Under the pieces are notes generated by a model. That model was not told where the DNA came from and searched no databases. It saw nothing but the letters and a program-made list of their open reading frames with translations. Source: an uncultured Anaerolineae bacterium (GTDB lineage Bacteria; Chloroflexota; Anaerolineae; CG2-30-64-16). From it: a DNA stretch of 64,000 nt. Within the stretch, counting starts at the first letter, position 1; each line of letters starts with the position of its first letter. Below, one piece after another: positions 4,703 through 63,837 of this stretch. The DNA is taken from contig CAKZKT010000014.1 in the NCBI GenBank assembly GCA_937124585.1, positions 7,393 to 71,392 on the forward strand, given 5' to 3'. Made by a program: the position numbers and the translations under genes.

Positions 4703-4737
4703 CACGCGGCCGCATGCTGCAAGATGCCCGGCACGTG
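4703..4737. repeat. Degenerate copy of the REP-like palindrome
   Basis: Right half TGCAAGATGCCCGGCACGTG matches the 39548 copy; the left arm is decayed. Confidence 0.55.
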
Positions 4738-4841
4738 TGGCGACGATTTTCAGGGTGGAGCAAGCGCTCGGTAACGTTTTGACGCAGCGTCCATCCCGCG
4801 GTAAACTTTGGGGAGCGGTGGATGATTTCCGGGAGACTGAC

Positions 4842-47201: not shown

Positions 47202-47377
47202 GGGCACAGCTCGTTTTCATGGCTTGTTGTGCCCCGGCAAGGACATGGACGCTGCTCCGCCAACGCCTCCCGTTGATATGACCCATGTCATTTGTCCCGG
47301 CCGGGATTCGTGATAAATTTAGCTTGGTTGCAACAAAACAGCGCAGTCTGACAAGACCCGAACGGGAGCCCTGGAAG

Positions 47378-47755: not shown

Positions 47756-47781
47756 GGCGAACGAACTGCGATATTATCACC

Positions 47782-49785
47782 ATGTGGGACGCAGCCAGGA
47801 GAGCCGTGCGAAGATTCTTTGGCGCACCGTTTCAACTGGTGCTGGTGATCGCGTTCTCGCTGGTTGCAGCGACCACGATCCTCGTCGGCACCGGTGTGAT
47901 CTCGCGCACCATTCGCGACTACCTGTCCGTTACCATGGCCGAGCGGGTCGCACGCGACATGCACCTGGCGCAGGCACTTTACCAAAGCTGGCTCACCGAC
48001 ATCGCCGAAATGACCCATCACGTGACGTTGAGCCCCGCCGTCATCCAGCACTGCGCCGCGGCCGGCAGGGGTGAAAGCCAGGCCCTGGACATCATCGAGC
48101 AAGAGGTCGCCAGGGTGATCCGCGCCGAGAGATTCCCGGGCAACCACCTGGTCGCCATCCTCGATGCCGAGGGCAGCTTCGTCACCGGCCATTGGGTGCC
48201 GACGGGCGGCGCGCCGACGCTGCTACGCAACGCAGGCGACTGGACGGGATTGCCGTCAATAAAGACGGTTTGGGACGGCAACGCCGGGGTTGCAACCACA
48301 GAGGTGATCCCCTACGAAGTCCTCTCCTCTGTGGGCCTTGCGGAACAGGCCTATATCCCGTTGCTCGAAACCCCCAGGGCAGCCGATGTTCCTTTCGATC
48401 CGCGCGAAGGCCGCGCCGGACTGGCCCTGGTCAGCGTGATGCCCATCCGCCAGGACGACGGCACTCGCGTGGGCCTGGCCCTGGCTTTTCATCTCTTCAA
48501 CAACGATTTCACCCTGGTGGATCAGATCAAAGAGGTGGCGGCTGTTGATACGGCCACGATCTTCCTGGGCGACCTGCGCGTCTCGACCAACGTGCGCGGC
48601 CTGGACGGCGAACGGGCGATCGGCACTCGCCTCTCCAAAGAGGTGAGCCAGGTCGTGCTGGAACAGGGAAACCCCTACATAGGCCCGGCTTTCGTGGTTC
48701 AGGAAAACTACATCACCCGTTACGAGCCGTTGCGCAACCATGCGGGGCAGGTGATCGGGATTTTGTACGTCGGCGCGCGCGAAGCCAGGTTCGCCCGTCT
48801 GGTCAACAGCTTCAACGAAAGGGTGGCCCTGGTGGCGCTGGGCTCCATCCTGGCGACCTTCTTGCTGGCAGTGCCCGTCTCACGCGTTGTGACCCGTCCC
48901 CTGCAGGAGCTGCGGGAGCTGGCCAAGGCCAATCGGCGCGTGGCGCGCGGGGACTTGACGGTGCGCGTGCCCGTCCGGGCCGGCGGCGATGTGGGGGAGC
49001 TGGCCAGTTCGTTCAACGCCATGTTGGATCAGTTGCAGAGCACCCAGGATCAGCTGGTGCACTCGGAGAAGCTGGCCTCTTTGGGCCAGCTGGCGGCCGG
49101 CGTTGCTCATGAGCTGAACAACCCGTTGGCCACCGTCCTGCTGTTTTCGGATATCTTGCTGCGGGAATGCGGGCCGGACGATCCGCAGCGCTCCGACCTG
49201 GAGATGATCGCCAGCGAAACCCGCCGCTGCAAAGGGATCGTCGCGGCGTTACTGGACTTCGCGCGCCAGAACCAGGTCATGGCCCAGGCCACAAACCTGA
49301 ACGCGATTGTGCAACAGGTGCTCCAAATCGAAACCAAGCGCTTGGGAGATGTCCCCATCACCTTCATCGCCGAGCTGGATCCGCAACTGCCCACTATCGA
49401 AGCGGACCCGGCCCAGCTGCAGGAGGTGGTCGCCAATCTGGTCACCAACGCGATCGAGGCCATGCCCTCGGGAGGCAAGCTCACGGTGCGCACCCGGCCG
49501 GGCCCTGAAGGCATGGTGACTATGACCGTGACCGACACCGGCGTGGGCATCACGCCGGAGGATCAAGCCAAGTTGTTCGTCCCGTTCTTTACGACCAAAC
49601 CGGTGGGAAAGGGCACCGGCCTGGGCCTGGCGATCGTTTATGGCATCGTCAAGATGCACCGCGGCCAGATCACCGTGCAAAGTCAGCAGGGCAAAGGCAC
49701 AACCTTTACCGTCACGTTGCCGGTGCGCCTGCTGCCCGGTGACAATTCCAGCATTAACTCGAGAAAAGACAGCGCATTTATATGA
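47782..49785 (+). CDS. Membrane sensor histidine kinase (Cache-HAMP-HisKA-HATPase, NtrB-like)
   Basis: ATIFLGDLRVSTNV Cache segment, HAMP, EKLASLGQLAAGVAHELNNP, NAIEAM, DTGVG, FFTTK, GTGLGL. Confidence 0.92.
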   Translation: MWDAARRAVRRFFGAPFQLVLVIAFSLVAATTILVGTGVISRTIRDYLSVTMAERVARDMHLAQALYQSWLTDIAEMTHHVTLSPAVIQHCAAAGRGESQALDIIEQEVARVIRAERFPGNHLVAILDAEGSFVTGHWVPTGGAPTLLRNAGDWTGLPSIKTVWDGNAGVATTEVIPYEVLSSVGLAEQAYIPLLETPRAADVPFDPREGRAGLALVSVMPIRQDDGTRVGLALAFHLFNNDFTLVDQIKEVAAVDTATIFLGDLRVSTNVRGLDGERAIGTRLSKEVSQVVLEQGNPYIGPAFVVQENYITRYEPLRNHAGQVIGILYVGAREARFARLVNSFNERVALVALGSILATFLLAVPVSRVVTRPLQELRELAKANRRVARGDLTVRVPVRAGGDVGELASSFNAMLDQLQSTQDQLVHSEKLASLGQLAAGVAHELNNPLATVLLFSDILLRECGPDDPQRSDLEMIASETRRCKGIVAALLDFARQNQVMAQATNLNAIVQQVLQIETKRLGDVPITFIAELDPQLPTIEADPAQLQEVVANLVTNAIEAMPSGGKLTVRTRPGPEGMVTMTVTDTGVGITPEDQAKLFVPFFTTKPVGKGTGLGLAIVYGIVKMHRGQITVQSQQGKGTTFTVTLPVRLLPGDNSSINSRKDSAFI

Positions 49786-51743
49786 AGCTACAGACCAAAT
49801 TCGCACTGGCCGTAATTATCCTTTTCGCGCTATTAGCCGCCGCCATGGCCGTGTTGAGCGCCACCCTGGTCAACCGCTACACCATTCGCGAGGCCGAGAA
49901 CCGCGTCCGCATCTACATGCGCGCGGCGTGGGAGATCCACGACAGCAAAATCGGCCGAACCCGGGCGGCGCTGGAAGTGCTGGCGCGTGATCCCGTGGTA
50001 GTGAACTTCTTGGCCGCCGGCGCCCCGGAGGCGATGACAGTCCAACTGCGGGACACGCTGGAGGCGATCCGCCGCGACCAGAAGATGGACATCCTGAACG
50101 TCCTGTCCCCCGAAGGCCGCGTCCTGATGCGCACGCGCGCGCCCTACAACAAAGGCGACAGCCTGATACAAGACCCGTTGATCAAGCAGGCTGCCGCCCT
50201 GCGGGAAAGCGTCACGGGGAACATCATCATGGAACAGGACCGGCTGGACATCGAGGGCAGCGAACTGATCGAACGGTGTCTGGCGGTAGGCAATGAGCCC
50301 CGTGGGCTGTTCGGCGGCGCGGCCGTGCCCGTCCTGGATGCGAACGACCGCCTGGTCGGCTTCATCGAGATGGGCTCGCTCCTGAACGGCGCTACCGAAA
50401 AGGTGGACGCCATCCGCAATGCGGTCTTCGCCAACGAGATCTACAACGGGAAGCCGGTGGGCACGGCCACCATCTTCATGGGGGACCTGCGGGTCTCGAC
50501 CAATGTGCTGGACAACCAGGGCCGCCGCGCCGTCGGCACGCGTGTCTCCAAAGAGGTGGCCGACCGCGTGCTGGGGGAAGGCCTCTCGTGGACCGGACGC
50601 GCGTTCGTGGTGGACACCTGGTATCTCGCCCAATACGATCCGATCCGGAATCCCGATGGCAAAGTCGTCGGCATGCTGTATGTCGGCGAACTGGAACAAA
50701 AATACCTGGACCTGCGCGCGCGGACTGTGGCGCTGAACCTGACGGTGATCCTGGCCGGCATGCTGCTCTCCTTCGTGGGTGCCCTGGGGCTGGTGAGAAA
50801 CATCGTCAAGCCGATCCGGGCCCTGGCAGGCGCCACCCAACGCCTGGCCGCCGGTGACTTCAGCTACCGCGTCGATATCAGACGCTCCGATGAGCTGGGC
50901 GACCTGGCCTCCTGCTTCAACAAGATGGCCGACCGGTTGGAGCAGCAACGCCAGGAACTGGAGACCCGCCAAAGAGAGCTGGAGGCGGTAAGCCAGCAGT
51001 TGCAAACCACCAACCGGAACTACATCGAGATGCTGGGCTTCGTCACCCACGAGCTGAAGAACCCGCTCACGTCGGCCATCATGGGGCTCTACACCGTCAA
51101 AGACGGCTACCTGGGCGAACTGAACCCGGCCCAAAAGAAGAGTCTGGAGACGGTCGCCCGGAGCCTGGACTATTTCCAGGACATGGTGCGCAACTACCTG
51201 GACCTGTCTCGGCTGGAGCAAGGTGAACTGAAGGTGACGAAACGCCGCCTGGAGCTGCGGAAAGCGGTGGTGGAACCTGCGCTGGAGAGCCTGGAGCGCC
51301 AGCTGCAGGAACGCCGGATGGCCTTAGACAACCGCATCTCGCCGGCGCTGATCGTCAACGCCGACCCGACGCTCATCCGCATCGTGTACGACGACCTGCT
51401 CTCCAACGCGGTGAAATATGGCCGGGAAGGAGGCACCATCCTGCTGGAGGCAGAGGAAAGCGACGACGGCGTGACCCTGAGCGTGCGCAACGACGGCGAG
51501 GGCATACCGGCCGAGAAGAAATCGCAGCTCTTCCAGCGCTTCAGCCGGCTCGACACGCCCAGCGCCACAGGCAAAAAGGGCACGGGCCTGGGATTGTACA
51601 TCTGCAAAGAGATTGTCGAGAAACACGGCGGCAAGATCTGGGCCGATTCCAAATCGGGGGAATGGGTGAAGTTCAGCTTCACCCTCCCAAACGGCATTCA
51701 CAACACCCAACCCAAAGGGGGGACACGAGACACGCATGTTTAG
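49782..51743 (+). CDS. Second membrane sensor histidine kinase (Cache-HAMP-HisKA-HATPase)
   Basis: ATIFMGDLRVSTNV, HAMP, VTHELKNP, SNAVKY, NDGEGI, GTGLGL; ATGA overlap with the first kinase. Confidence 0.92.
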   Translation: MKLQTKFALAVIILFALLAAAMAVLSATLVNRYTIREAENRVRIYMRAAWEIHDSKIGRTRAALEVLARDPVVVNFLAAGAPEAMTVQLRDTLEAIRRDQKMDILNVLSPEGRVLMRTRAPYNKGDSLIQDPLIKQAAALRESVTGNIIMEQDRLDIEGSELIERCLAVGNEPRGLFGGAAVPVLDANDRLVGFIEMGSLLNGATEKVDAIRNAVFANEIYNGKPVGTATIFMGDLRVSTNVLDNQGRRAVGTRVSKEVADRVLGEGLSWTGRAFVVDTWYLAQYDPIRNPDGKVVGMLYVGELEQKYLDLRARTVALNLTVILAGMLLSFVGALGLVRNIVKPIRALAGATQRLAAGDFSYRVDIRRSDELGDLASCFNKMADRLEQQRQELETRQRELEAVSQQLQTTNRNYIEMLGFVTHELKNPLTSAIMGLYTVKDGYLGELNPAQKKSLETVARSLDYFQDMVRNYLDLSRLEQGELKVTKRRLELRKAVVEPALESLERQLQERRMALDNRISPALIVNADPTLIRIVYDDLLSNAVKYGREGGTILLEAEESDDGVTLSVRNDGEGIPAEKKSQLFQRFSRLDTPSATGKKGTGLGLYICKEIVEKHGGKIWADSKSGEWVKFSFTLPNGIHNTQPKGGTRDTHV

Positions 51744-51768
51744 CGTTATGGCTAAGGGAGGCCAGACG

Positions 51769-52185
51769 ATGACCCGCAAACAACGCATCCTCGTCGTGGA
51801 CGATGACGTCCAGGTGGTGGACGCCATGGAAACCTTGTTGCAAGGTGTAGGATACGAGACCTTGCATGCTTACCGGGCCGAAGATGGAATCGAGCTGGCC
51901 CGGCAGGCCAAACCGGATTTGATGCTGCTCGATGTCATGTTCGCGGGGCCGCCCGGCCCGGACGGGTTCGAGACGGCCCGCACCATGCGCGGGGACCCGG
52001 AACTTCGAGACATCCCCATCATCATCCTGTCCGGGATCAAGACCGTGCTGGGGATCAGCTACGACGTGGCTCCAGACGAGACGTGGATGCCCGTCAAAGC
52101 GTTCCTGGAGAAGCCGGTGCGGCCTGACAGGCTGTTGAAAGAGATCGAGAAGATCCTCGGACCGCGTGAAAAGGCAGTCGCATAA
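51769..52185 (+). CDS. Single-domain response regulator
   Basis: ILVVDDD, LMLLDVM, ILSG, FLEKP; SD AAGGGAGG. Confidence 0.88.
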   Translation: MTRKQRILVVDDDVQVVDAMETLLQGVGYETLHAYRAEDGIELARQAKPDLMLLDVMFAGPPGPDGFETARTMRGDPELRDIPIIILSGIKTVLGISYDVAPDETWMPVKAFLEKPVRPDRLLKEIEKILGPREKAVA

Positions 52186-52188
52186 CCC

Positions 52189-54429
52189 ATGACAACGCGC
52201 GGCAAGGTCCTGGTCATTGATGATGAACTGGGCATTCGCGAGGGCTGCAAGCGGGCCCTGACCTCCCAGGGCTTCACGGTTGATGTGGCGCAGGACGGCC
52301 TTGACGGGCTGGCAAAGATCAAGGCCAACGGCTACGACGTGATTCTGCTGGACATCATGATGCCGGGGATCGGGGGCATCGAACTGCTGAGCCTGATCCG
52401 CGAGCACGACCCGGAGGCGGTCTGCATCATCATCACCGGTTACGGCACCGTGCAGGTGGCGGTGAACGCCATCAAACGCGGGGCCTATGACTTCCTTACC
52501 AAGCCGTTCACCGTGGACGACCTGCTGTTGGCGGTCAGCCATGGGCTGGAGCACCGGCGCCTGTTGTTGGAAGAGCAGCGGCTGAAGGCGCTAGAGGCCG
52601 AAACGCAGCAACTGGCTTACGAGAAACGCAAACTGGAGGAGGTGGAAAAAGCCAAGGCAACCTTCATCCGTCTGGTCACCCACGAGCTGCAAGCACCCAT
52701 CGCAGCCATCCAGGGCTATCTGCAGTTGATCCTGGACGGCTACGTTGAGCCCGAGAAACAACGGGAGGTGCTGGAAAAGGCGTCGGCGCGCGCCCAGGAG
52801 CAGATGGCGTTGATCGCCGACCTGCTGACCCTCAGCAAATTGCGCGATGCCCGCCAGCGCGAACAGGCTACCGAAGTGCGGCTGGACGAGCTGCTGCGCC
52901 AGGTGCTCGAGCCGTTTCAAGCGCAAGCCGTCGAAAAGGGCGTGTTGTTGCGCGCGAACATCGAGGGAGAAATCCCGGCCGTGCGTGGCATTGCCGGTGA
53001 GTTCAAGAGCCTCTTTGCGAACTTGATCAGCAACGCCATCAAATACACGCCGGCGGGCGGTTCCGTGGCAGTCAGCCTGCGCACGGATGACGGCAAGGTC
53101 ATCGGCTGCGTCAGCGACACCGGCATCGGCATCCCTCCCGAGGCGCGCGATCGCCTCTTCTCCGAATTCTTTCGAGCCGACAACGCCAAGGCCATGGCGT
53201 TGCGCGGCACGGGGCTGGGCCTGGTGATCGTCAAGCAGGCGGTGGAAAACGCCGGTGGACAGATTTGGGTCGAGTCAGAGCTTAACCGCGGGACAACTTT
53301 CACTTTTACCATACCGACAATGGCCGTCGCTGAAGAGCGACCAGAGCCCGTGAGTATTGAACCAAAGAAAGGAGGTCGGATGAGCCTAAGAATCATCGAA
53401 AAAAGCGCGCTGCCCGCGTTCGTTGCCGGCATCATGCGCGAGTACGAGGTGGTGGGGCCCCAGACCAAAGAGATATTGCCCAACGGCAAGAGCCAGTTCG
53501 TGTTCGGCCCCCTCACCAATCCCCATCAATTGCGGTTGGATTACGACACCACCGTTCTGCCGCCCAAGAAGTACCTTTTGCCCCAAGAAGAGGTGCTGTT
53601 CACCTTCGACACAGGAAGCCTCGCCGCCACGCCCCGCTTCGACACGCAGCCGCGTGTGCTGTTCGGCGTTCACACCTGCGATATCCACGCCTTGGCCCTG
53701 CTGGACGCCGTCTTTGCCACCGGCCAGCGCGATGAGCACTACCTCAAGCGGCGAGCCTCGACCCTGATCGTCGGCATCGAGTGCCTGGCGCCGTGCGATG
53801 AACACAGCTTCTGCAAGAGCATGGGCACCCTGACGGCGGATAAAGGATTCGACCTGCACCTCATTGACCTGGGGCAACGCTACGCCGTAGAGGTGGGCAC
53901 CGCGGCCGGCGAGGCGCTGCTGGCCAGACACGCGGCCGCGCGCATGGCCGATGAAAGTGACATCGAACTGCTGAACCGGGTGCTTTCGGAGAAATGGCCG
54001 CGCTTCCCCTATCGGCTCGATTTCGACGGCAGCGAATTGCCCAACCTGATGGCGCTGAGCTACAAAGACCCGCTCTGGGAGGAACTAGGTCAACGTTGTC
54101 TGTCATGCGCGGCGTGCAACCTGGTGTGCCCCACCTGCTATTGCTTCAACGTCGTTGACCAGGTGACGCTGGACCGGAAAAACGGCGAGCGGATACGGAA
54201 ATGGGATAGCTGTCAATTGGATGAATTCGCCCGCGTCGCCACCGGTGAAAACTTCCGACACAAGCGCTCACAACGCCAGCGTCACCGCTTCTTCCGCAAA
54301 GGCAAGTACATCCCGGAGATGCACGGCGAGCTGGGCTGTGTGGGCTGTGGCCGCTGTGCGCGCGCTTGCCTGGTAGACATCACCCCGGTCGGCGTCTGGA
54401 ACAAGTTGTACCAGGCGCACGCGAGCTAG
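52189..54429 (+). CDS. In-frame fusion: hybrid REC-HisKA-HATPase kinase plus sulfhydrogenase beta (HydB/AsrA-like) Fe-S subunit
   Basis: aa 1-~385 carry VLVIDDE, LLDIMMP, FLTKP, VTHELQAP, SNAIKY, DTGIG and GTGLGL. From aa 398 come PPKKYL, GVHTCD, CLSCAACNLVCPTCYC and CVGCGRCARAC. No stop codon lies between them. Confidence 0.88.
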   Translation: MTTRGKVLVIDDELGIREGCKRALTSQGFTVDVAQDGLDGLAKIKANGYDVILLDIMMPGIGGIELLSLIREHDPEAVCIIITGYGTVQVAVNAIKRGAYDFLTKPFTVDDLLLAVSHGLEHRRLLLEEQRLKALEAETQQLAYEKRKLEEVEKAKATFIRLVTHELQAPIAAIQGYLQLILDGYVEPEKQREVLEKASARAQEQMALIADLLTLSKLRDARQREQATEVRLDELLRQVLEPFQAQAVEKGVLLRANIEGEIPAVRGIAGEFKSLFANLISNAIKYTPAGGSVAVSLRTDDGKVIGCVSDTGIGIPPEARDRLFSEFFRADNAKAMALRGTGLGLVIVKQAVENAGGQIWVESELNRGTTFTFTIPTMAVAEERPEPVSIEPKKGGRMSLRIIEKSALPAFVAGIMREYEVVGPQTKEILPNGKSQFVFGPLTNPHQLRLDYDTTVLPPKKYLLPQEEVLFTFDTGSLAATPRFDTQPRVLFGVHTCDIHALALLDAVFATGQRDEHYLKRRASTLIVGIECLAPCDEHSFCKSMGTLTADKGFDLHLIDLGQRYAVEVGTAAGEALLARHAAARMADESDIELLNRVLSEKWPRFPYRLDFDGSELPNLMALSYKDPLWEELGQRCLSCAACNLVCPTCYCFNVVDQVTLDRKNGERIRKWDSCQLDEFARVATGENFRHKRSQRQRHRFFRKGKYIPEMHGELGCVGCGRCARACLVDITPVGVWNKLYQAHAS
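53380..54429 (+). CDS. hydB: Group 3b hydrogenase beta subunit translated from an internal start
   Basis: SD AAAGGAGG directly precedes the in-frame ATG at 53380 (MSLRIIEK). Confidence 0.65.
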   Translation: MSLRIIEKSALPAFVAGIMREYEVVGPQTKEILPNGKSQFVFGPLTNPHQLRLDYDTTVLPPKKYLLPQEEVLFTFDTGSLAATPRFDTQPRVLFGVHTCDIHALALLDAVFATGQRDEHYLKRRASTLIVGIECLAPCDEHSFCKSMGTLTADKGFDLHLIDLGQRYAVEVGTAAGEALLARHAAARMADESDIELLNRVLSEKWPRFPYRLDFDGSELPNLMALSYKDPLWEELGQRCLSCAACNLVCPTCYCFNVVDQVTLDRKNGERIRKWDSCQLDEFARVATGENFRHKRSQRQRHRFFRKGKYIPEMHGELGCVGCGRCARACLVDITPVGVWNKLYQAHAS

Positions 54430-54438: not shown

Positions 54439-55275
54439 ATGGCAATACCGACAGTCGGTTCAATCTACGTTCCCAGCCCGGCGCGCATTGCCAAAGTGCA
54501 GCAGCTGACCGCGCTGGAGAAGCTGTTTACCATTGAGCTGCCCTGGGGCCAAAGCCTGGGACATGAGCCGGGCCAATTCGTCGAGGTGAGCATCTTCGGC
54601 GTCGGTGAGGCGCCCATCTCCATCAGTTCGTCCCCCAGCCGAAGCAACGGCACCTTCGAGCTTTGCGTGCGCAAGGTGGGCGACGTCACCGCGGCCATGC
54701 ACAAGCTGGAGGTCGGCGCCAGCATCGGCGTGCGCGGCCCGTTCGGCCACGGCTTCCAAATCGAGAAGATGCGCGGCAAAGATATCCTGTTCGCACCCGG
54801 CGGCCTGGGGCTGGCGCCTGCGCGCAGTTTGATCAACCAGGTCTTGGACGAGCGCGGCTCCTTCGGCCGCGTCATCATCCTGTACGGCGCCAAGAACCCC
54901 TCTGAACTGCTGTTCAAGGACGAATTGGAGGCATGGAGCAAGCGGCCGGATGTGGAGTTCCATGTGACCGTGGATCGGCCCGACTCGACCTGGAACGGCA
55001 ACGTCGGGGTGATCACTACCCTGTTCAAGAAGATCCATGTAAACCCGCGCAACACCGTGGCGGTAACCGTTGGCCCGCCCATCATGTACCGCTTCGTGTT
55101 GATGGAACTGCTGGGCAAGGGCATCCCGGAGACCCAGATCTGGATGTCCCTGGAACGGCGGATGAAATGCGGTGTCGGGAAATGCGGTCACTGTCAGATC
55201 AACAACCTGTACTGCTGCCAGCAAGGCCCGGCCTTCACTTACGCCCAGATCAAAGGCGTCGAGGAGGCGATTTGA
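54439..55275 (+). CDS. hydG: Group 3b hydrogenase gamma subunit (FAD/NAD(P), 2Fe-2S)
   Basis: PGQFVEV, GEAPISISS, RGPFG, GGLGLAP, LERRMKCGVGKCGHC, CCQQGP. Confidence 0.9.
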   Translation: MAIPTVGSIYVPSPARIAKVQQLTALEKLFTIELPWGQSLGHEPGQFVEVSIFGVGEAPISISSSPSRSNGTFELCVRKVGDVTAAMHKLEVGASIGVRGPFGHGFQIEKMRGKDILFAPGGLGLAPARSLINQVLDERGSFGRVIILYGAKNPSELLFKDELEAWSKRPDVEFHVTVDRPDSTWNGNVGVITTLFKKIHVNPRNTVAVTVGPPIMYRFVLMELLGKGIPETQIWMSLERRMKCGVGKCGHCQINNLYCCQQGPAFTYAQIKGVEEAI

Positions 55276-56021
55276 TGAAACCCAAAGTGGCTTTCTTCGA
55301 CTTCACCAGTTGCGAAGGCTGCCAGCTCACGGTGGTGGACAGCCTGCAAACGCATACCGAGCTCCTCGATGCGGTCGAGATCGTACAATTTCGTGAGGCG
55401 ATGACCGAAAAGGGCGAGGACTACGCGGTGGCCTTTGTGGAGGGCTCCATCAGCCGGCCCAGTGACGAGCCGCGGCTGAAGCGCATTCGCGAGCAAGCCG
55501 CGGTGCTGGTCGCCCTGGGTGCCTGCGCGCACCTGGGCGGCATCAACGCGATCCGCAACGCCATGCCGCTGGACGACGTGCGCCGCTACGTGTACGGCGA
55601 CAAGGCCGACTGGTACGAAACCTACCCGGCCCGGCCGATCAGCGCCGTCGTGCCGGTAGACGCCGTGATCCCTGGCTGCCCCATTGACCGCAACGAATTC
55701 CTGGAGGTGGTCAAGGCGCTGTTGTTGGGCAAAAAGCCGCCGCTGCCCGATTATCCCCTGTGTGTGGAATGCAAGCTCAAGGAACACACCTGTCTGTTTC
55801 ATAAGGGCGGCTATTGCCTGGGGCCGGTAACGCGCGCGGGCTGCGGCGCCATTTGTCCCACCTATGGCGACGGTTGCGAAGGCTGCCGAGGCCTGATCCC
55901 TGACCCGAACCGCAACGCCATGAGCGAGGTCTTGTTGGAACACGGCCTGACCGTAGATGCGATGCTGGCGCGCTGGACGATGTTTGGGACGTATCAGCAG
56001 ATGGAAACGGGGAAAAAATAG
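55275..56021 (+). CDS. hydD: Group 3b [NiFe]-hydrogenase small (delta) subunit
   Basis: FTSCEGCQ, VEGS, ALGACA, IPGCP, LCVEC, CLGPVTRAGC...CP...CEGCRG. Confidence 0.92.
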   Translation: MKPKVAFFDFTSCEGCQLTVVDSLQTHTELLDAVEIVQFREAMTEKGEDYAVAFVEGSISRPSDEPRLKRIREQAAVLVALGACAHLGGINAIRNAMPLDDVRRYVYGDKADWYETYPARPISAVVPVDAVIPGCPIDRNEFLEVVKALLLGKKPPLPDYPLCVECKLKEHTCLFHKGGYCLGPVTRAGCGAICPTYGDGCEGCRGLIPDPNRNAMSEVLLEHGLTVDAMLARWTMFGTYQQMETGKK

Positions 56022-56137: not shown

Positions 56138-57427
56138 ATGGCAAATGTCAACATAGAAGTTCATCACGTCACCCGTGTCGAGGGGCATGGGAACATCGTG
56201 GTCAATGCCAAAAACGGCGTGCTGGAGGAATGCCGGCTGGAGATCGTGGAGACCCCGCGCTTCTTCGAAGCGATGTTGCGCGGCCGGCCATACACGCAGT
56301 CCAGCCATATCACCAGCCGGATCTGCGGCATCTGCGCCGTGGGCCATGCCACGGCCAGCCTGCGCGCCACCGAGAACGCGCTGGGCATCGAGCCGTCGGA
56401 GCAGACGGTGTTGCTCCGCAAGCTGAACTTCCACGGCGAGATCATTGACAGCCATGTGCTGCACGTGTACATGCTGGTCGCGCCCGACATGTTCGGCGTT
56501 GGCTCAGTGATCCCCCTGGTGAAGACGGCGCCCGATGTGGTATTGCGCGCGCTGCGCATCAAGAAGCTTTCCGGCGACCTGTGCGCAACCATCGGCGGCC
56601 GCCACACCCATCCGATCGCCATGGCCGTGGGCGGCTTTACCCATTACCCCACCGTGGCCGAGCTGAAGGCGCTGCGCCAGCGGCTGGTGGACGCCCGGGC
56701 CGACATGGACGAGACGGTCAAGCTGGCGAAAACGCTGCCCTGGCCGCAGTTCAACCGCGAGACCGAATACGTGGCGCTGCGCAAAGAGGACGAGTACGCT
56801 TTCATTGACGGCACCATCACCACGACCGACGGCGGAAAGTATCCAGTGAAGGACTACCGCAAAGTCACCAACGAACGCATGGTGCCGCACTCCACCGCCA
56901 AGTACACCGCGCACAAGCGTGAATCGTACATGGTGGGCGCGCTGGCGCGCTTCAACGTCAATTACGACAAGCTGCACCCGCGCGCTCAGGCCGCGGCCGA
57001 GGAACTGGGCCTGAAGCCGATCTGCACCAACCCATACCTGAACACGGCGGCCCAGGTGGTGGAGATGGTGCACAGCGTCGAAGATTCCATCCGCATCATT
57101 GACGAGCTGTTGGTGCGGGGCATCCATCCGGAACCGCTGCCGCCGTTCCCCGGCCGGGGCGGCGAGGGGGTCGGCTCCTGCGAGGTGCCGCGCGGGATCC
57201 TCTTCCACAACTATCAGATCGGCGAGAACGGCTTGGTAAAGAACGCCAACTGCATCATCCCCACAGGGCAAAACCTGGCGAACATCGAAGCGGACATGCG
57301 CAAACTGGTGCCGGAGATCCTCGATCGGCCCCAGGACGAAATCCGACTGATGCTGGAGATGCTGGTGCGCGCGTACGACCCGTGCATCTCGTGCTCGGTG
57401 CACTTTCTGGAGGTGAAGTTTGTTTGA
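56138..57427 (+). CDS. hydA: Group 3b [NiFe]-hydrogenase large (alpha) subunit
   Basis: TRVEGHG, L1 SRICGICAVGH, EVPRG, L2 YDPCISCSVH, followed by a 7-aa cleavable tail. Confidence 0.95.
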   Translation: MANVNIEVHHVTRVEGHGNIVVNAKNGVLEECRLEIVETPRFFEAMLRGRPYTQSSHITSRICGICAVGHATASLRATENALGIEPSEQTVLLRKLNFHGEIIDSHVLHVYMLVAPDMFGVGSVIPLVKTAPDVVLRALRIKKLSGDLCATIGGRHTHPIAMAVGGFTHYPTVAELKALRQRLVDARADMDETVKLAKTLPWPQFNRETEYVALRKEDEYAFIDGTITTTDGGKYPVKDYRKVTNERMVPHSTAKYTAHKRESYMVGALARFNVNYDKLHPRAQAAAEELGLKPICTNPYLNTAAQVVEMVHSVEDSIRIIDELLVRGIHPEPLPPFPGRGGEGVGSCEVPRGILFHNYQIGENGLVKNANCIIPTGQNLANIEADMRKLVPEILDRPQDEIRLMLEMLVRAYDPCISCSVHFLEVKFV

Positions 57428-58397
57428 CGACGGACGAAAGACGAAGGACGAAGGACGAAAGACGGACGAAACCGTTGATCATTCGTCATTCGTCATTCGT
57501 CCGGTCTTGGTCCTGGGCCTCGGCAACCCGCTGCAAGGGGATGATGGCGTCGGTTGCCGGGCCATCGAGGCGTTGCAGCAGTACACGCTGCCGGAGACGG
57601 TCGAAACCCTGGACGGCGGCACCCCCGGCATCGGGTTGTTGCACCTGCTGGAGGGGCGGCGGCGTGCCATTCTGGTGGACGCGGCCGAGATGGGCCAGCC
57701 GGCCGGCACCATCGTCCGGTTTCGAGCCGCAGACGTAACCCTGGCCGGCGCCGCAGAACGCCTCTCGCTCCACCGGACAGCGGTAGCCGATGCGCTGGCG
57801 CTGGCAGAGGCGCTGACGCTGTCGCTGCCGGACATCGTGTTTTTCGGGGTGCAGCCGGAACGTGTCGGCTGGGGCCAGGACCTGAGCCCCAAAGTCGCGG
57901 CCGCCGTACCACAGGTGGTACAGGCGATCTTGCATGAGATCTCTCACGATCCAAAGGAAGGGATACACATGCCCACGAAAAAAGAGGCTCCTGAAACCAA
58001 AGGCCTGATCTTGATCGTTGACGACGATCCAGACATGGTAGAAGCTTTGCGCATGCCGCTCGAGGCCCACCGCTACTCCGTAGCCCATGCTGCCAGCGGT
58101 CGTCTGGCCCTGAAGATGATCCCGGAGCTGCGACCCGACCTCATCATCCTGGACGTGATGATGGAAACGACCACCGAAGGTTTCCAGGTGTCCCTCGCGC
58201 TGCGCAGCCCCGACCCGCGCTCCGAATACGCGGCCTACAAAGACATCCCCATCCTAATGCTGACCTCGATCCACTCGACCACGCCGTTGCGCTTCGGGCC
58301 GGATCAGGACTACCTGCCGGTGGACGAGTTCATAGACAAGCCGGTGGACCCAGACAAGTTGGTTGCCAAAATCAACGCATTACTGGCCCGCAAGTAG
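57420..58397 (+). CDS. In-frame fusion: hydrogenase maturation protease plus receiver domain
   Basis: GLGNPLQGDDGVG, LDGGT, ILVDA, SLH, then from the ATG at 57969 (SD AAGGAAGG) LILIVDDD, IILDVMME, MLTS, FIDKP. No stop codon lies between them. Confidence 0.85.
   Translation: MFDDGRKTKDEGRKTDETVDHSSFVIRPVLVLGLGNPLQGDDGVGCRAIEALQQYTLPETVETLDGGTPGIGLLHLLEGRRRAILVDAAEMGQPAGTIVRFRAADVTLAGAAERLSLHRTAVADALALAEALTLSLPDIVFFGVQPERVGWGQDLSPKVAAAVPQVVQAILHEISHDPKEGIHMPTKKEAPETKGLILIVDDDPDMVEALRMPLEAHRYSVAHAASGRLALKMIPELRPDLIILDVMMETTTEGFQVSLALRSPDPRSEYAAYKDIPILMLTSIHSTTPLRFGPDQDYLPVDEFIDKPVDPDKLVAKINALLARK
57424..57501. repeat. Heptamer tandem/inverted repeat inside the protease 5' end
   Basis: GACGAA(A/G) repeated about five times, then TTCGTC(A) three times; the arms are complementary. 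Confidence 0.85.
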
Positions 58398-58568: not shown

Positions 58569-59039
58569 ATGCTTGATATGACAACAAACTTCGACCTGGC
58601 GCCGTTGCATGCGATCCTGGAAGAGTATGGCAGTCAAAAAGGCACCGTCATCCCCATCCTGCAGCGGGTGCAGGACGCGTACGGTTACCTGCCGAAGGAA
58701 ATCCTGGCCGAAATATCGAAGCGGACCAACATCCCCCTCACCCAGCTCATGGGAGTAGCGACCTTCTACACCCAGTTCCGCTTGAGCCCGCGGGGTAAGC
58801 ATCTTATTCGGGTATGCGACGGAACGGCTTGTCATGTAAGTGGAGCGCCCCACATTGTAAGGGCTATCGAAAAGGAATACGATATGCCGGCCGGATCTTC
58901 CTCGCCTGATCTTAAGTATACGCTCGAGGTTGTATATTGCGTGGGCGCATGTGGACTGGCTCCGGTCGTCATCGTGGATGACAAGGTGTATGGGAGGCTC
59001 TCTCCCGATGCTGTCCTGGAAAAAGTGCGTGATGTCTGA
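58569..59039 (+). CDS. NuoE/HydC-like 2Fe-2S subunit
   Basis: IPILQRVQDAYGYLP, ATFYTQF, VCDGTACH, CVGACGLAP. Confidence 0.92.
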   Translation: MLDMTTNFDLAPLHAILEEYGSQKGTVIPILQRVQDAYGYLPKEILAEISKRTNIPLTQLMGVATFYTQFRLSPRGKHLIRVCDGTACHVSGAPHIVRAIEKEYDMPAGSSSPDLKYTLEVVYCVGACGLAPVVIVDDKVYGRLSPDAVLEKVRDV

Positions 59040-59065
59040 TAAGGCAACCCGGCAGGAGGCGCGAG

Positions 59066-60979
59066 ATGTCCTTATTGAAATCCACTGATGATCTGCTGAG
59101 CCTGCGCGAGAGGGCAATATACGCTTTAGGGGTCCGTGTGCCGGGCGCGTCCCAACCTCAGTTTCGCAACGACGTAGTCGTTTGTGGCAGCACAGGCTGT
59201 CGGTCGGCCAATTCCCAGCAGGTTCTGAAAGCGCTACAGGCTCAGATCATCCAGAGGGAGTTGGACAAGGCTGTACGCGTGATTTCTACTGGTTGCCGCG
59301 GTTTATGTGCCGTGGGACCGGTGATGCAGATTTTCCCCTCCGGTGTGTTCTACAACCGCGTCCAGATTACGGACGTGCCAGAAATTGTCGAACAGACGCT
59401 GGTCGGGGGCAAGATCATCGAAAGGCTTTGTTTCCGTGATGTGGCGCAGAACAAAAGGCTCGCGCATTATCTGGACATTCCGTTTTATAACCGACAACTG
59501 CCCATTGTCCTACGCAACTGCGGCTTGATTGATCCGCAAAACATAGAGGAATACATCGCCACTGATGGCTACTTGGGATTGACTAAAGCATTAGAGCTAT
59601 CACCCGAGGAGGTCATCGAGATCATCAAAAATTCAGGCTTGCGTGGGCGTGGCGGAGCCGGCTTTTCCACAGGCATTAAATGGGAGCTTTGTCGGCGGGT
59701 CGCAAAACAACCGAAGTACGTGATTTGCAACGCGGATGAAGGTGATCCTGGCGCGTTCATGGACCGTTCCATCCTGGAAGCTGACCCGCACAGCGTGATC
59801 GAAGGGATGGTAATTGCAGCCTATGCGATTGGAGCGCCGCTAGGATACATCTATGTACGTGCTGAATACCCGTTGGCTGTGATTCACCTCCGAAGAGCTA
59901 TCGCCCAAGCGCGGGCGTACGGCCTACTGGGCGAAAATATCCTGGGCAGCGGCTTCTCCTTTGACCTGCACCTGAAGGAGGGGGCGGGCGCGTTCGTGTG
60001 CGGCGAGGAGATGGCACTCATCGCCTCCGTCGAAGGCCGCCGCGGAGAGCCGCGGCCCAAACCACCCTTCCCGGCCGTCTCCGGCCTCTGGAACCGGCCA
60101 ACGGTCGTCAACAACGTCAAAACCTACGCCCTGACGCCCCGGATCATCCTGAGGGGGCCAGAGTGGTTCTCGAGCATCGGCACGTCCAAATCGCCGGGCA
60201 CCGCCGTGTTCGCCTTGACCGGAAAGATCAGAAACACCGGCCTGATCGAAGTGCCCATGGGCATCACCCTGCGCGAGATCATCTACGACATTGGCGGCGG
60301 CATCCCCAAGAAGCGCCAGTTCAAGGCCGTCCAAACCGGCGGCCCGTTGGGCGGATGCCTGCCCGCCTCGGCGCTAGACACGCCGGTGGATTTCGATTCC
60401 CTCACCGAAGCCGGCGCCACCATGGGCTCGGGGGGCATGATCGTGGTTGACGAGCGCACCTGTATGGTTGAATTCGCCAAATACTTCCTGACCTTCGCTA
60501 CTGCCGAATCGTGTGGCAAGTGCGTGCCGTGCCGCATCGGCGGCCAGCGACTGCTGGAAGTGCTCACCCGCATCACCTCAGGCGCAGGCACCCCGCGCGA
60601 TTTGGACGAGATTGAACGCATCTCCCGCAACATGCGCGAGGCGTCGCTCTGTGCGCTGGGCCAGCTGACACCCGGCCCGGTCATGTCGGCGCTGCGCTTC
60701 TTCCGTGAGGAGTACGAGGCGCATGTCTACGACAAATTCTGTCTGGCCGGCGTCTGCAAAGGGCTCTATGAGCTGCACGTGGACGCCGACAGATGCGCGG
60801 GATGCGGCTTGTGCAAGAAGGCCTGTTCACAAGACGCGATCAGCGGCAACCGCAAGGAACCGCATGTCATTGACCAGCTCAAATGCATCCAGTGCGGCGC
60901 TTGTGTCGAGGCGTGCAACCTGGATGCCATCGTAGCTCAGCCGCGAGGAAAAGGCGTACATGCCATTGCGGTGGCTTAG
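59066..60979 (+). CDS. NuoF/HydB(BfuB)-like FMN/NADH subunit with extra Fe-S domains
   Basis: N-terminal CGSTGC...GCRGLC, GLRGRGGAGF, NADEGDPGAFMDR, FVCGEE, GGPLGG, ESCGKCVPCR, SLCALG, H-x5-C-x4-C, and a C-terminal 2x[4Fe-4S]. Confidence 0.93.
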   Translation: MSLLKSTDDLLSLRERAIYALGVRVPGASQPQFRNDVVVCGSTGCRSANSQQVLKALQAQIIQRELDKAVRVISTGCRGLCAVGPVMQIFPSGVFYNRVQITDVPEIVEQTLVGGKIIERLCFRDVAQNKRLAHYLDIPFYNRQLPIVLRNCGLIDPQNIEEYIATDGYLGLTKALELSPEEVIEIIKNSGLRGRGGAGFSTGIKWELCRRVAKQPKYVICNADEGDPGAFMDRSILEADPHSVIEGMVIAAYAIGAPLGYIYVRAEYPLAVIHLRRAIAQARAYGLLGENILGSGFSFDLHLKEGAGAFVCGEEMALIASVEGRRGEPRPKPPFPAVSGLWNRPTVVNNVKTYALTPRIILRGPEWFSSIGTSKSPGTAVFALTGKIRNTGLIEVPMGITLREIIYDIGGGIPKKRQFKAVQTGGPLGGCLPASALDTPVDFDSLTEAGATMGSGGMIVVDERTCMVEFAKYFLTFATAESCGKCVPCRIGGQRLLEVLTRITSGAGTPRDLDEIERISRNMREASLCALGQLTPGPVMSALRFFREEYEAHVYDKFCLAGVCKGLYELHVDADRCAGCGLCKKACSQDAISGNRKEPHVIDQLKCIQCGACVEACNLDAIVAQPRGKGVHAIAVA

Positions 60980-60993
60980 GAGAGCCGATAGAT

Positions 60994-63837
60994 ATGCCCC
61001 AAGTAAACATCACGATTGACGGCAAGAAGATCAAGGCCGAAGCCTTCAAGACCGTGTACGAGGTGGCGACGGCCAACGGCATCTACATCCCGGCCCTCTG
61101 TCATCACCCGGCCCTGCCGCCGGAAGGCGCCTGCCGCGTCTGCCTGGTGGAGATCGAACGCCAACGCGCGCTTCAACCGGCATGTACCTTCCCGGTGACC
61201 GAAGGGCTGGTCATTCACACCAACTCGCCCAAGGTGCGCGAAGCACGCAAATTCGCGCTGGAGCTGATCATCTCTGACCACCCCCTGGATTGCATGACCT
61301 GTGAGGCCACCGGCGATTGTCGGCTGCAAGACCTGGCCTACGAGTACGGCGTGAAGGGCAACGAATACACGGGCGGCGTGCAGCACACCTACCCGATTGA
61401 CGACCCCAACCCCTTCATCCAGGTGGACCGCAATAAATGCATCCTCTGTCGGCGCTGCGTGCGAGCGTGCAACTACATCAACGGCGTCGAGGCCATCGGC
61501 ATCGTCTATCGCGGCTTCAAAGCGCGCATCGCCTTCGGCATGGACTCCACCATGCAAGACAGCCCGTGCGAATTCTGCGGCAGCTGCGTCGAGGTCTGCC
61601 CCACGGCCGCGCTGTGGCCCAAGATGAGCCTGGGCAAGGGCCGCGCCTGGCAGCTCAAAAAGATCGAAACGATCTGCTCCTACTGCGGCGTCGGCTGTCG
61701 GCTGAACCTCCACGTGCGCGATAACGAGATCGTCAAAGTGACCGGCGCCGATGGCCCCGCCAACCACGGCTTCACCTGCGTCAAAGGCCGTTTCGGCTAC
61801 GACTATGTCAACCATCCGGAGCGACTGACCAGGCCGCTGGTGCGACGCTATCTGCTGGAGGGGGGGAGCAAAGCGGCGACGGATCACCGTGGCGGCGGTG
61901 ATGGAAAAAATGGAGACGGACTGCTGGCGACGGGCAATGCCGCCGCCGATTTCGTCGAGACCGATTGGGATACGGCGCTCAACCTGGTCGCCCACAAGTT
62001 CGCCGAGATCAAGCGGAACTATGGCGGCGACGCGTTTGCCGCGCTGTGCTCGGCGCGCTGCACCAACGAAGAAAACTTCCTGATGGCCAAGCTGACGCGG
62101 CAGCTGATGGCAACGCACAACATAGACCACTGCGCGCGTCTCTGACACAGCGCCACCGTCACCGGTCTGGTGACATCGTTCGGCTCCGGCGCCATGACCA
62201 ACCCGTTCGATGACATTGCCAAAAACGCGCAATGTCTCTTCATCATCGGCTCGAACACCACCGAGCAGCATCCGGTGTTCGGAATGCAGCTTCGCCAGGC
62301 GGTCAAGCAGCGCGGGGTGCCGCTCATCCTGGCCGATCCGCGGCGCATTCCGATCGCGGACTATGCGACGATCCACCTGCGCCACAAGCCCGGCACCGAC
62401 ACGGCCCTGCTCAACGGCCTGATGTACGTGCTGATCACCGAAGACCTGTACGACCACGAGTTCGTGGCCAATCGCACCGAAGGCTTCGAAGAACTGAAGG
62501 CGAAGATCCTCGCATATCCGCCGGAGCGCGTAGCCGAGATCTGCGACGTAAATGCCGAGGATATCCGTCGGGCCGCACGGCTCATGGCCGCGCACAGACC
62601 CGGCGCGCTGATGTATGCGATGGGCATCACCCAGCACACCAGCGGCCACGGCAACGTCATCTCCTGCGCCAACTTGCAGATGCTTCTGGGCAACGTCGGC
62701 GTGGCCGGCGGCGGCGTCAATCCGTTGCGCGGCCAGTCGAACGTGCAGGGTTCGTGCGATATGGGCGGCCTGCCGAACTACTACAGCGGCTATCAGAACG
62801 TCGCCCTGGAAGCCAGCCACAAAAAATTCGAGGCGGCCTGGGGCGCGGTGCCGCCGGTGGACAAACCCGGCCTGACCCTGGTCGAGATGATGCGCGCGGC
62901 CGAGCACGGCCAGATCAAGGCCATGTACATCCTCGGCGAGAACCCCGCCCTGTCCGACCCCGACAGCAATCACGTGCGCCGCTGCCTGGCCGCGCTCGAC
63001 TTCCTCGTGGTCCAGGACCTCTTCCTGACCGAAACCGCCCAACTGGCCGATGTCGTGCTGCCGGGCGCGTCGTTCGCGGAGAAAGATGGCACGTTCACCA
63101 ACAGCGAGCGCCGCGTGCAACGCGTGCAGCGCGCGCTCAACCCGATCGGCGAGTGTCGGCCCGACTGGGAGATCATCTCCGACCTGGGACAGCGCCTGCT
63201 GACAGCCATTTGGCCAGAGCTGCCGGACGCGATCGCCGAGGCACCGCATGGCCATTGGGATTACATGAACCCGGTTGAAATCCTGGACGAGATCGCCGAC
63301 CTGACGCCGTCGTACGCCGGCATTCGGGCGCATCGGCTGGAGAAGCTGGGCAGCTTGCAATGGCCCTGTCCCGATGAGAAACACCCCGGCACGCCGATCC
63401 TGCACGTCGGCAAGTTCACGCGCGGCCTGGGCAAGTTCCAGCCGATGGGCTATCTGCCGCCGGCCGAACTGCCAGATGAATCCTATCCGCTGCTGCTGAC
63501 GACCGGCCGCGTGCTGTATCACTACCATACCGGCTCGCTGACCCGCCGGGCACGGGGACTGGCTGCCATCTATCCGGAAGGACTGATCGAGCTGCATCCC
63601 GAAGACGCGGCGCGACTCGGCGTGGCGAACGGGGAAACGGTCGAGGTCGCCAGTCGGCGCGGCCGCGTTCACGCCAAGGCCGATGTCACCGAGCGCGTGC
63701 AGCCCGGCGTCGTCTTCATGACGTTCCACTTCCCCGACAGCGCAGCCAATTTCCTGACCAATCCGGCGCTCGACCCGGTGGCTAAGATACCCGAGTTCAA
63801 AGCGTGCGCGGTGCGAGTGAGCAAATGCGCAGTATGA
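60994..63837 (+). CDS. fdhF: Selenocysteine-containing Mo/W formate dehydrogenase alpha with an N-terminal NuoG/HydA-like Fe-S module; one CDS of about 947 aa
   Basis: IPALCH, CRVCLVE, HPLDCMTC, CILCRRC, CEFCGSC, CSYCGVGC, CVKG. In-frame TGA at 62143 sits in DHCARL-U-H. Downstream are GSNTTEQHP, LRGQSNVQG and TTGR; the two ORF-track pieces are in the same frame. Confidence 0.92.
62143..62177 (+). promoter_or_regulatory. Sec UGA codon and bacterial SECIS
   Basis: TGA, 12 nt spacer, then stem GTCACC/GGTGAC with loop GGTCT; same position and loop as the E. coli fdhF SECIS. Confidence 0.85.

Follow-up and report, generated by a model that had tools for sequence, protein, structure and literature searches.

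Removal of a C-terminal tail such as that of HydA is the committing step of [NiFe] site assembly, and the control of hydrogenases is known to act at transcription, through H2-sensing two-component systems, and at cofactor supply. The group 2b H2-sensors HoxBC/HupUV operate with a kinase, HoxJ/HupT, and a regulator, HoxA/HupR, which has an NtrC-type DNA-binding output; the C-terminal tail is missing from the large subunit of these sensors and a protease is unnecessary. Stand-alone CheY-like regulators paired with a histidine kinase are also known, among them Rcp1 with Cph1, DivK and CpdR, and the response regulators CpdR and RssB are phosphorylation-dependent adaptors for ClpXP proteolysis. To our knowledge, hydrogenase control exerted at the maturation protease, or via receivers without DNA-binding output, is not known. 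In the searchable full-text literature, largely outside subscription journals, no description was found of a protease-receiver fusion, of group 3b operons that carry a two-component module, or of phosphorylation control of HycI/HybD-type proteases. Here we analyse a gene that joins such a protease to a receiver (REC) domain, encoded in 64,000 nucleotides from an uncultured Anaerolineae bacterium of the Chloroflexota (assembly GCA_937124585.1, contig CAKZKT010000014.1, positions 7,393 to 71,392), hereafter called the window. The initial annotation of this gene had proposed that hydrogenase maturation is gated by phosphorylation.

The fused gene follows a set of hydrogenase and signalling genes (Table 1). 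The order of the subunits, beta (AsrA-like Fe-S), gamma (FAD/NAD), delta (small) and alpha (large), is that of a group 3b, sulfhydrogenase-type enzyme according to Pfam and NCBIfam, and since the ShyA, ShyB, HydA and HydB equivalog scores lie far under their cut-offs (e.g. 290 vs 700), the hydrogenase is a distant member of this group. The best NCBIfam matches of HydA itself are sulfhydrogenase ShyA/HydA alpha, under the equivalog cut-offs. HydA carries the motif RICGICAVGH, and the cleavable tail attributed to it in the initial annotation was recognised, the C-terminal DPCISCSVH being followed by the seven residues FLEVKFV (57404-57424). Encoded directly upstream of the protease, and a cognate large subunit with an extension after DPCxxCxxH/R, HydA is the presumed substrate of the protease half. 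The kinase fused to HydB, an arrangement also found in L004, L005, L006 and L044, is encoded in the operon of the fused ORF and is a candidate phosphodonor. Pfam scans of the locus detected no DNA-binding domain (HTH, sigma-54) on its four receivers, nor in the upstream signalling genes from 47285 to 52185.

Table 1. Features of the hydrogenase and signalling locus in the window (positions are those of the window)
Feature	Position	Strand	Basis or remark
REC	47285-47755	+	Pfam
Cache-HAMP-HisKA-HATPase kinase	47782-49785	+	Pfam
Cache-HAMP-HisKA-HATPase kinase	49782-51743	+	Pfam
REC	51736-52185	+	Pfam
REC-HisKA-HATPase kinase fused in frame to HydB Fe-S subunit	52189-54429	+	Pfam, NCBIfam
hydG, FAD/NAD(P)-binding gamma subunit	54439-55275	+	Pfam
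hydD, small subunit	about 55299-56021	+	Pfam
hydA, large subunit of group 3b-type [NiFe] hydrogenase	56138-57427	+	Pfam NiFeSe_Hases; motifs
Whole protease::receiver ORF, stop codon included	57420-58397	+	325 aa if TTG 57420 is the start
Long hairpin, imperfect, formed by GACGAA/TTCGTC repeats between hydA stop and protease core	57432-57513	+	MFE -39.7 kcal/mol, z -2.67
HycI/HybD-type maturation endopeptidase domain	57507-57944	+	Pfam, TIGR00072, phmmer, Foldseek
Variable disordered linker, ~20-25 residues	57945-58004	+	pLDDT <50 at residues 151-161
Junction peptide of the fused protein			HEISHDPKEGIHMPTKK
Receiver (REC) domain	58005-58394	+	Pfam Response_reg; invariant residues; Foldseek

An intact HycI/HybD-type protease had been described as continuing in frame into a canonical receiver, and the domain models, the metal ligands and the active-site residues all agree with this description. 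The protease half matches Pfam HycI (PF01750) over residues 46-172 of the fused ORF with 77.3 bits against a cut-off of 23, and TIGR00072, the hydrogenase maturation protease family, with 136.5 bits against 47.45. The equivalog and subfamily models hupD, HybD, HycI and FrhD all score below their own cut-offs, and the protease is therefore a member of the family rather than a named equivalog. The metal ligands, numbered as are all key sites of the fused protein from TTG 57507, are D13 (57543), D58 (57678) and H89 (57771), which align to E16, D62 and H93 of HybD (phmmer against HybD 1cfz, E 1.7e-15); alignments of 34 to 73 homologues show D or E at position 13 and no variation at D58 or H89. Residues 1-146 are modelled by AlphaFold mostly with pLDDT above 90, and Foldseek places this half on 1cfz_A with an E-value of 1.9e-11, a TM score (target) of 0.79 and an rmsd of 2.1. 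The protease half thus has all the features required of a working HybD-type endopeptidase, an activity that is predicted from its sequence.

The receiver half matches Response_reg (PF00072) over residues 197-319 of the fused ORF, with 63.5 bits against a cut-off of 30.2, and superimposes on receiver structures with Foldseek TM scores of 0.8-0.88. Its active site is complete, with the acidic pair D172/D173 (58020-58025), the phospho-acceptor D216 (58152), T253 (58263) and K278 (58338)-P279, and these positions are invariant or at least 90% conserved in the 34 fused homologues and in a 73-row alignment. Each residue required for phosphorylation is thus in place, and phosphotransfer itself is predicted; candidate kinases are encoded in the same operon, as they are next to the REC orthologues. 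The alpha4 region is replaced by a conserved Pro-rich segment, IHSTTPLRFGPDQDYLPVD, in which T259, F263, P265 and L270-P271-V272 are invariant among the 34 fused proteins. The predicted fold comprises five strands and four helices, none of the helices lying between beta4 (249-253) and beta5 (274-277), where pLDDT is 54-70. The order found is not the classical one of response regulators, an N-terminal receiver and a C-terminal output, as REC is C-terminal here and a separate protein in most relatives.

The two domains share one frame, with no stop codon between them from 57420 to 58397. The true start of the ORF is uncertain, the candidates being TTG 57420, ATT 57498 and TTG 57507. The first overlaps the stop codon of hydA and is preceded at 6 nt by GGAGG, and close homologues begin at a position matching one of the other two. 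Counted from TTG 57420, codons 1-29 are the translated GACGAA-repeat hairpin, which also spans ATT 57498 and TTG 57507; a similar hairpin is found in L005 and L006, and one of different sequence at the equivalent place in L004 and L046. That a sequencing or assembly error deleted a stop codon or shifted the frame of two genes that are truly separate is extremely improbable. The genome is indeed a draft of 164 contigs, but the identical 325-aa product is recorded from three contigs and four member sequences, and relatives at 70-83% identity have the same fused junction in independent assemblies, with linkers that differ by whole codons. The same architecture occurs in ~38 protein clusters from independent assemblies (NCBI, JGI, ENA, Logan), and assembly error was rejected as the cause of the fusion on the basis of these fused relatives.

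The widespread layout among relatives is hydB-hydG-hydD-hydA-protease-REC-(GAF/REC-)histidine kinase, in which protease and REC are separate genes. It was found in nearly all of 78 species-level loci, drawn from 552 confirmed relatives and covering at least eight phyla; lineages with the REC-kinase pair on a group 3b operon include Chloroflexota, Acidobacteriota, Planctomycetota, Verrucomicrobiota, Marinimicrobia-like bacteria and others. The REC orthologues are stand-alone proteins of 130-165 aa beside a sensor kinase (TM-GAF-HisKA-HATPase), and about 35 of about 40 in the class sample are immediately beside the protease. A single protease and REC ORF was found in four of the 78 loci, plus the window, in a census biased by the recovery of fused sequences mostly through a protein search favouring two-domain matches and of split loci through tblastn ranking. 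In an even sample of the class the fused state was present in two of 401 genomes (G000 and G212), and a relative of the same genus (G042, the same as L044) has the two genes split. No fused protein was present in the best 150 of the 50%-identity representatives, longer matches that were checked by Pfam being other architectures. The survey of the architecture suggested earlier gave a divided answer: the link between protease and REC is recurrent, the two being neighbours in hundreds of operons, while their covalent fusion is exceptional.

A tree of 106 tips, rooted in the split state, shows at least 14 changes between the fused and split states and has split genes nested within the fused clade of the window. 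This comparison of homologous loci shows the fusion to be an occasional, reversible joining of two normally adjacent genes. Fusion persists in two clades, across about 70% amino-acid identity, which exceeds the expectation for a purely transient accident and could be explained by a benefit of tethering; a direct partnership of REC and protease would equally yield recurrent fusion. At split loci, many REC genes lie in the protease frame with one stop between, which suggested stop-codon read-through or recoding. This was dismissed because the ranking of related loci by tblastn score favours in-frame pairs; at lower-ranked split loci REC lies in other frames or overlaps the protease by 8-35 nt.

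Several loci separate the signalling genes from the protease. In L089 the order is hydA-REC-kinase, the protease gene is missing in between and the HydA tail is retained; in L088 and L091 the REC-kinase pair is located apart from the protease, and in G107 the two are on separate contigs. G125, a further candidate for a REC without protease, was rejected, since a contig end explains the absence. A further possibility is that REC is unrelated to hydrogenase biogenesis and serves several kinases as a phosphate sink or shuttle, in a relay with its output elsewhere, such as a DNA-binding regulator from a different locus, the fusion being a neutral by-product of tight packing. Several paralogous stand-alone receivers and three kinases at the locus would fit a relay of this kind, as would family members of REC that lie apart from hydrogenase genes (L088, L090) and an AsnC-HTH+REC gene upstream in one fused lineage (L083). 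The low frequency of the fused state is likewise consistent with a mutation balance, because a stop is more easily gained in the linker than lost. REC-kinase pairs on group 3b operons across at least eight phyla are, however, hard to explain without a hydrogenase-related role, and in the lineage of the window a kinase is fused to HydB itself. On balance, this explanation is considered rather unlikely.

The junction retains the marks of a separate gene. The internal SD and ATG reported there were confirmed, AAGGAAGGG (57954-57962) preceding ATG 57969-57971, both inside the linker. The junction methionine (Met155) is invariant in all 34 aligned fused proteins, and an SD lies 4-16 nt upstream of the junction ATG in eight of the nine fused genes with available DNA and in five of six independent lineages, against a background of 12.6% of control positions (binomial P 5e-7); a strong SD precedes every split REC gene. 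The SD and ATG inside the fused ORF are the retained signals of the ancestral REC gene, and since both are kept in the fused genes, free REC is probably still produced from the internal start.

With 34 fused sequences AlphaFold gave two well-folded domains, a disordered linker and a pTM of 0.50; with a 73-row paired alignment, for which split loci were translated across their in-frame stops solely to make them alignable, pTM was 0.54 and interdomain packing was again not confident. Overall pLDDT of the fused protein was 85-88, and no fixed or docked interface between protease and REC was found in either prediction. Sequence and fold searches of the PDB returned single-domain matches only, none of the solved chains covering both domains.

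These observations weigh on the proposal that maturation is gated by phosphorylation. It holds that REC, whether tethered or not, attaches to the endopeptidase or to the complex of protease and pre-HydA, and that phosphorylation permits or blocks tail removal; nickel-loaded HydA precursor could in this way be kept back until the cassette kinases signal its release. The immediate neighbourhood of the protease and REC genes in most cassettes speaks for it, as do the many independent fusions with their persistence in two clades, the retention of all catalytic and phospho-acceptor residues in the fused proteins, and the cassette's lack of a DNA-binding output. The highly conserved Pro-rich segment lies at alpha4, the usual output face, which suggests a conserved protein partner, and CpdR and RssB offer a precedent for phosphorylation-dependent control of proteolysis. 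Adjacency is more simply explained, however, by the hydrogenase module ending with the protease and the two-component module beginning with REC; REC is a promiscuous fusion partner, the fusion is rare and reversible, the paired alignment of 73 rows brought no confident packing of the domains, and the layouts of L089 and G107 also speak against the proposal. We regard it as unlikely, and the narrower claim that HydA tail removal is gated by REC phosphorylation with a signal from the hydrogenase-attached kinases (REC-HK::HydB) as doubtful. The rarity of the fusion, the kept SD and ATG, the models without a fixed interface and the layouts of L089, L088 and L091 all weaken the phospho-gated reading, and on the same grounds it is the hydrogenase operon, and not specifically the cleavage step, to which the evidence links the two-component module.

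The explanation we favour, at about even confidence, is that a hydrogenase operon and a two-component module meet in this fused gene, and that their joining is tolerated but unstable in evolution. The first module would be a group 3b [NiFe]-hydrogenase operon whose last gene encodes the maturation endopeptidase of the same hydrogenase, and the second a putative hydrogenase-dedicated two-component system of a stand-alone receiver and one or more histidine kinases, without DNA-binding output. The locus may give two products, a protease-REC protein of roughly 32 kDa that begins at the upstream start and a free REC of 142 aa and 15.6 kDa that begins at ATG 57969 (Met155/Pro156), whose use as a start is suggested by the signals that precede it. 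HydA would be cleaved by the fused protease much as by its unfused orthologues, while REC, mostly free, would be phosphorylated by the Cache kinases and/or the HydB-fused kinase, and REC may act on the hydrogenase system, its assembly or activity, through protein-protein interaction. With two such products and a mostly free REC, the covalent link would therefore not be an essential feature; it may rather show that the signalling module and the hydrogenase are close to each other, physically and in function.

The main value of the locus lies in the receiver and sensor kinase on group 3b operons of many phyla, more than in the single fused gene. These operons, the repeated fusion of REC to the protease and the joining of a kinase to HydB make it a concrete and testable idea that a NAD(P)-linked hydrogenase receives or sends signals post-translationally, and natural fused and split versions are available for experimental comparison. 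Gating, if true, would place a post-translational checkpoint, or a feedback loop, in the maturation of a metallo-enzyme, and a hydBGDA-protease-REC-kinase cassette would conserve it in many phyla. If the fusion is neutral, the locus would be a clean case of packed neighbour genes drifting in and out of fusion with the internal start kept, and a caution for Rosetta-stone inference, in which gene fusions serve as function predictors.

Compared with the described systems, the N-terminal 146 residues resemble the HybD/HyaD/HycI endopeptidases (1cfz, 2e85, 5ija) in the three metal ligands, the predicted fold and the preceding large subunit with DPCxxCxxH and tail; the known members, however, are single-domain proteins of about 150-165 aa, whereas the window protein has a C-terminal receiver on a flexible linker. 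The HoxBC-HoxJ system is likewise a two-component system coupled physically and genetically to a [NiFe] hydrogenase, and the HydB-fused kinase is reminiscent of it; unlike HoxBC-HoxJ-HoxA, HydA has a tail, the enzyme is group 3b-like and the receivers of the cassette are without a DNA-binding domain. With Rcp1, DivK and CpdR the REC orthologues share a stand-alone position beside a kinase, a full phospho-acceptor pocket and the absence of an output domain, whereas the window REC has a Pro-rich segment in place of a predicted alpha4 helix, belongs to a hydrogenase operon and is joined to a maturation protease. Finally, CpdR and RssB are a precedent for a receiver that steers a protease through protein contact and not transcription, to which the gating model would be analogous; their AAA+ proteases degrade substrates, whereas the window protease is a single-cut maturation endopeptidase.

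The maturation protease and the receiver occupy one open reading frame at the position given by the initial annotation, with no stop codon between the two domains. Pfam places HycI, the protease domain, at aa 46-172 (77.3 bits against a cut-off of 23) and Response_reg, the receiver (REC), in the same frame at aa 197-319 (63.5 bits against 30.2); the NCBIfam model TIGR00072 agrees with Pfam (136.5 bits against 47.45). The description of an intact protease joined to a canonical receiver also holds at residue level: counted from TTG 57507, D13, D58 and H89 correspond in alignment to Glu16, Asp62 and His93, which bind the metal in E. coli HybD, and the receiver pocket comprises D172/D173, the phospho-acceptor D216, T253 and K278-P279. 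The N-terminal half shows every testable feature of the HybD/HycI endopeptidase family, and the C-terminal half those of a receiver domain except a complete alpha4. HydA, encoded directly upstream, carries the motif RICGICAVGH, and since it ends in DPCISCSVH-FLEVKFV, the cleavable tail attributed to it (FLEVKFV) is available for cutting. Two further HycI-type proteases are encoded elsewhere in the genome, neither of them bearing a receiver.

Features of the hydrogenase operon and its signalling genes in the window
Feature	Coordinates	Strand	Remarks
REC	47285-47755		first in operon order
Two Cache-HAMP histidine kinases	47782-49785 and 49782-51743		HisKA-HATPase
REC	51736-52185		after the Cache-HAMP kinases
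REC-HisKA-HATPase::HydB	52189-54429		in-frame fusion; HydB is an AsrA-like Fe-S subunit
HydG, HydD, HydA, then protease::REC			follow kinase::HydB
Long, imperfect GACGAA/TTCGTC repeat hairpin	57432-57513		after the hydA stop and ahead of the protease core; includes the probable start codon
Protease::REC ORF	57420..58397	+	Pfam and NCBIfam profile matches

AlphaFold2 predicted two confident domains (mean pLDDT 85-88; pTM 0.50 with 34 sequences and 0.54 with a 73-row paired alignment) joined by a disordered linker at about residues 151-161. In Foldseek searches the N-terminal domain resembled HybD (1cfz, TM 0.79) and the C-terminal domain ordinary receivers (TM 0.8-0.88), and no solved chain spanning both was found. 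No alpha4 helix is predicted in the receiver, and this region is occupied by a conserved Pro-rich segment, IHxTTPLRFGPDxDYLPVD, in which several residues are invariant and which is a candidate partner-binding surface.

Although the ORF does begin at 57420, the true start is probably ATT 57498 or TTG 57507, because the first 29 codons from TTG 57420 are a translation of the repeat hairpin, and because in the related locus L004 a hairpin of other sequence lies in the same place ahead of an ATG start. TTG 57420, overlapping the hydA stop and with GGAGG 6 nt upstream, is a possible but less likely start. The window hairpin has a folding energy of -39.7 kcal/mol (z -2.67), and hairpins with different repeat sequences are found at the equivalent position in L004 and L046, which suggests a conserved intercistronic structure between hydA and the protease; such a structure could restrict translation of the protease or make the hydBGDA transcript more stable.

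A search over 5.8 billion proteins recovered HycI and Response_reg in one chain in about 38 clusters from NCBI, JGI, ENA and Logan assemblies, 42-83% identical to the window protein, and in an alignment of 34 of these fused proteins the protease ligands and receiver pocket are kept while the linker varies except for one invariant Met. That the fusion is an artefact is therefore very unlikely, these clusters coming from independent assemblies, and protease::REC is a real architecture. One relative (P0015, a 381-aa annotated Anaerolineae protease) combines HycI, FAD_binding_6 and Response_reg by Pfam, and could represent either a more extensive fusion or an assembly error.

The survey across genomes thus found more than a single case, but the fusion is uncommon and the split layout widespread. 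A scan with one genome per species gave 552 confirmed relatives, the best 78 of which belong mostly to Anaerolineae and other Chloroflexota and also span Acidobacteriota, one deltaproteobacterium, Verrucomicrobiota, Auribacterota, Scalindua, Phycisphaerales, Planctomycetota and Neomarinimicrobiota. By six-frame domain mapping, nearly all of these 78 loci share the cassette HydB-HydG-HydD-HydA-protease-REC-histidine kinase (in L008, for example, a 156-aa protease, a 134-aa receiver and a 630-aa membrane GAF kinase), and a single protease-receiver ORF occurs only in four of them and the window; in about 70, protease and receiver are separate genes, adjacent or overlapping, every receiver having its own strong Shine-Dalgarno sequence (SD) and ATG. 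Among 401 genomes sampled evenly from the class, a stop-free fusion occurs only in the window's genome and in G212; the best 150 matches among 50%-identity representatives include no fused protein, and a genome of the window's own genus (L044) has the two genes split in different frames. The fusion is an occasional variant of the split arrangement. A maximum-likelihood tree of protease plus receiver, built from 38 fused and 68 split sequences, has a split root and requires at least 14 changes of state. Fused sequences predominate in the window's clade to a depth of about 70% identity, although the split L044 and L046 are nested inside; another fused clade (P0019-P0035) is of similar depth, and outside both, fused sequences adjoin split ones at 76-81% identity. 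Four additional fused lineages, inspected at the DNA level, all lie within the same cassette. Loss of a stop codon would create the fusion, and a stop gained in the linker would readily undo it.

The internal SD and ATG reported at the junction are present (AAGGAAGGG, then ATG 57969). The junction Met follows purine-rich codons in every fused protein aligned, and a GGAG, GAGG or AGGA core lies 4-16 nt upstream of its ATG in 8 of 9 fused genes (5 of 6 independent lineages), against 12.6% of control positions in the same genes (binomial P 5e-7). A ribosome-binding site and a start codon have persisted in a linker that evolves fast, an indication that the free receiver is probably still translated from this ATG. 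The rarity of the fusion, its multiple origins and reversals, and the persistence of the internal start are all consistent with a near-neutral join that is tolerated.

In the window, protease::REC is the final gene of a group 3b-type hydrogenase operon whose four receivers all lack a DNA-binding domain in the domain scan. The Cache-HAMP kinases are tandem paralogues with overlapping stop and start codons, flanked by stand-alone receivers, and could bring extracellular-signal input to a hydrogenase-linked relay. The kinase::HydB fusion recurs in L004, L005, L006 and L044, and is more stable than protease::REC, being present even in L044, where protease and receiver are split. Just past the window end, about 6 kb downstream and after NuoE/NuoF/formate-dehydrogenase genes (58569-63837), lies a free receiver paralogue (G000:C14:71729-72109) with 68% identity to the receiver part of the fused protein; in relatives a further REC and a kinase come after it (L004 18396-20411; L006 18119-20201; L044 17204-19136), so that the lineage holds a second REC-REC-kinase block, with the formate-dehydrogenase cluster between the two. 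Two fused-gene cassettes are flanked by molybdopterin (formate-dehydrogenase-like) and heterodisulfide-reductase-like genes (CCG, FlpD, Fer4; L082 1-2365 and 10509-16575; L084 8790-15978), which, with the window, suggests a recurrent link of this hydrogenase with formate or electron-bifurcation modules.

The fusion sits at a module boundary, since the hydrogenase module ends with the protease gene and the receiver gene opens an appended receiver-kinase module; the other boundary is fused too in the window's lineage (kinase::HydB). The two-component module accompanies the hydrogenase operon rather than strictly the protease. At L089 (minus strand of G106:C51, about 1947-5854), the receiver and a TM-GAF kinase come directly after HydA in a group 3b operon, no protease gene intervening, and HydA keeps its tail (STH-LLNVRFA); with this genome only 69% complete, the protease could be encoded at another place. 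G107 has its protease-containing operon (L091) on one contig and the receiver-kinase pair (L088) on another. The phosphorylation-gated HydA tail cleavage proposed in the initial annotation is compatible with everything seen but singled out by no result, and we regard it as unlikely; comparably doubtful is a receiver acting as relay or sink in a role unrelated to the hydrogenase. That the fusion is tolerated in many lineages, and that a kinase is joined to HydB as well, is nonetheless an argument for signalling proteins that act near the hydrogenase. The reading we favour, though it may equally well prove wrong, is that the locus would yield two products and that its receiver would be the output through which a two-component system dedicated to the hydrogenase acts, by protein contact, on hydrogenase assembly or activity, with the covalent tether dispensable. 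In one fused lineage (L083, 2804-4135), an AsnC-type HTH protein with a receiver, and another stand-alone receiver, are encoded just upstream of hydB; the former is a possible DNA-binding output in some organisms.

No earlier description of the protease-receiver fusion or of the cassette was found in the full-text literature searched, and the main value of the locus is that it directs attention to a signalling module that is conserved and linked to the hydrogenase. Unlike in a classical response regulator, the receiver here is C-terminal and usually a separate protein. H2-sensor hydrogenase systems (HoxBC-HoxJ-HoxA) share with the present one only the coupling of kinase and hydrogenase; their defining features, a large subunit without a tail and a regulator that binds DNA, are absent here. 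CpdR and RssB are receivers that control proteolysis, and provide a functional precedent for protease::REC, by analogy only.
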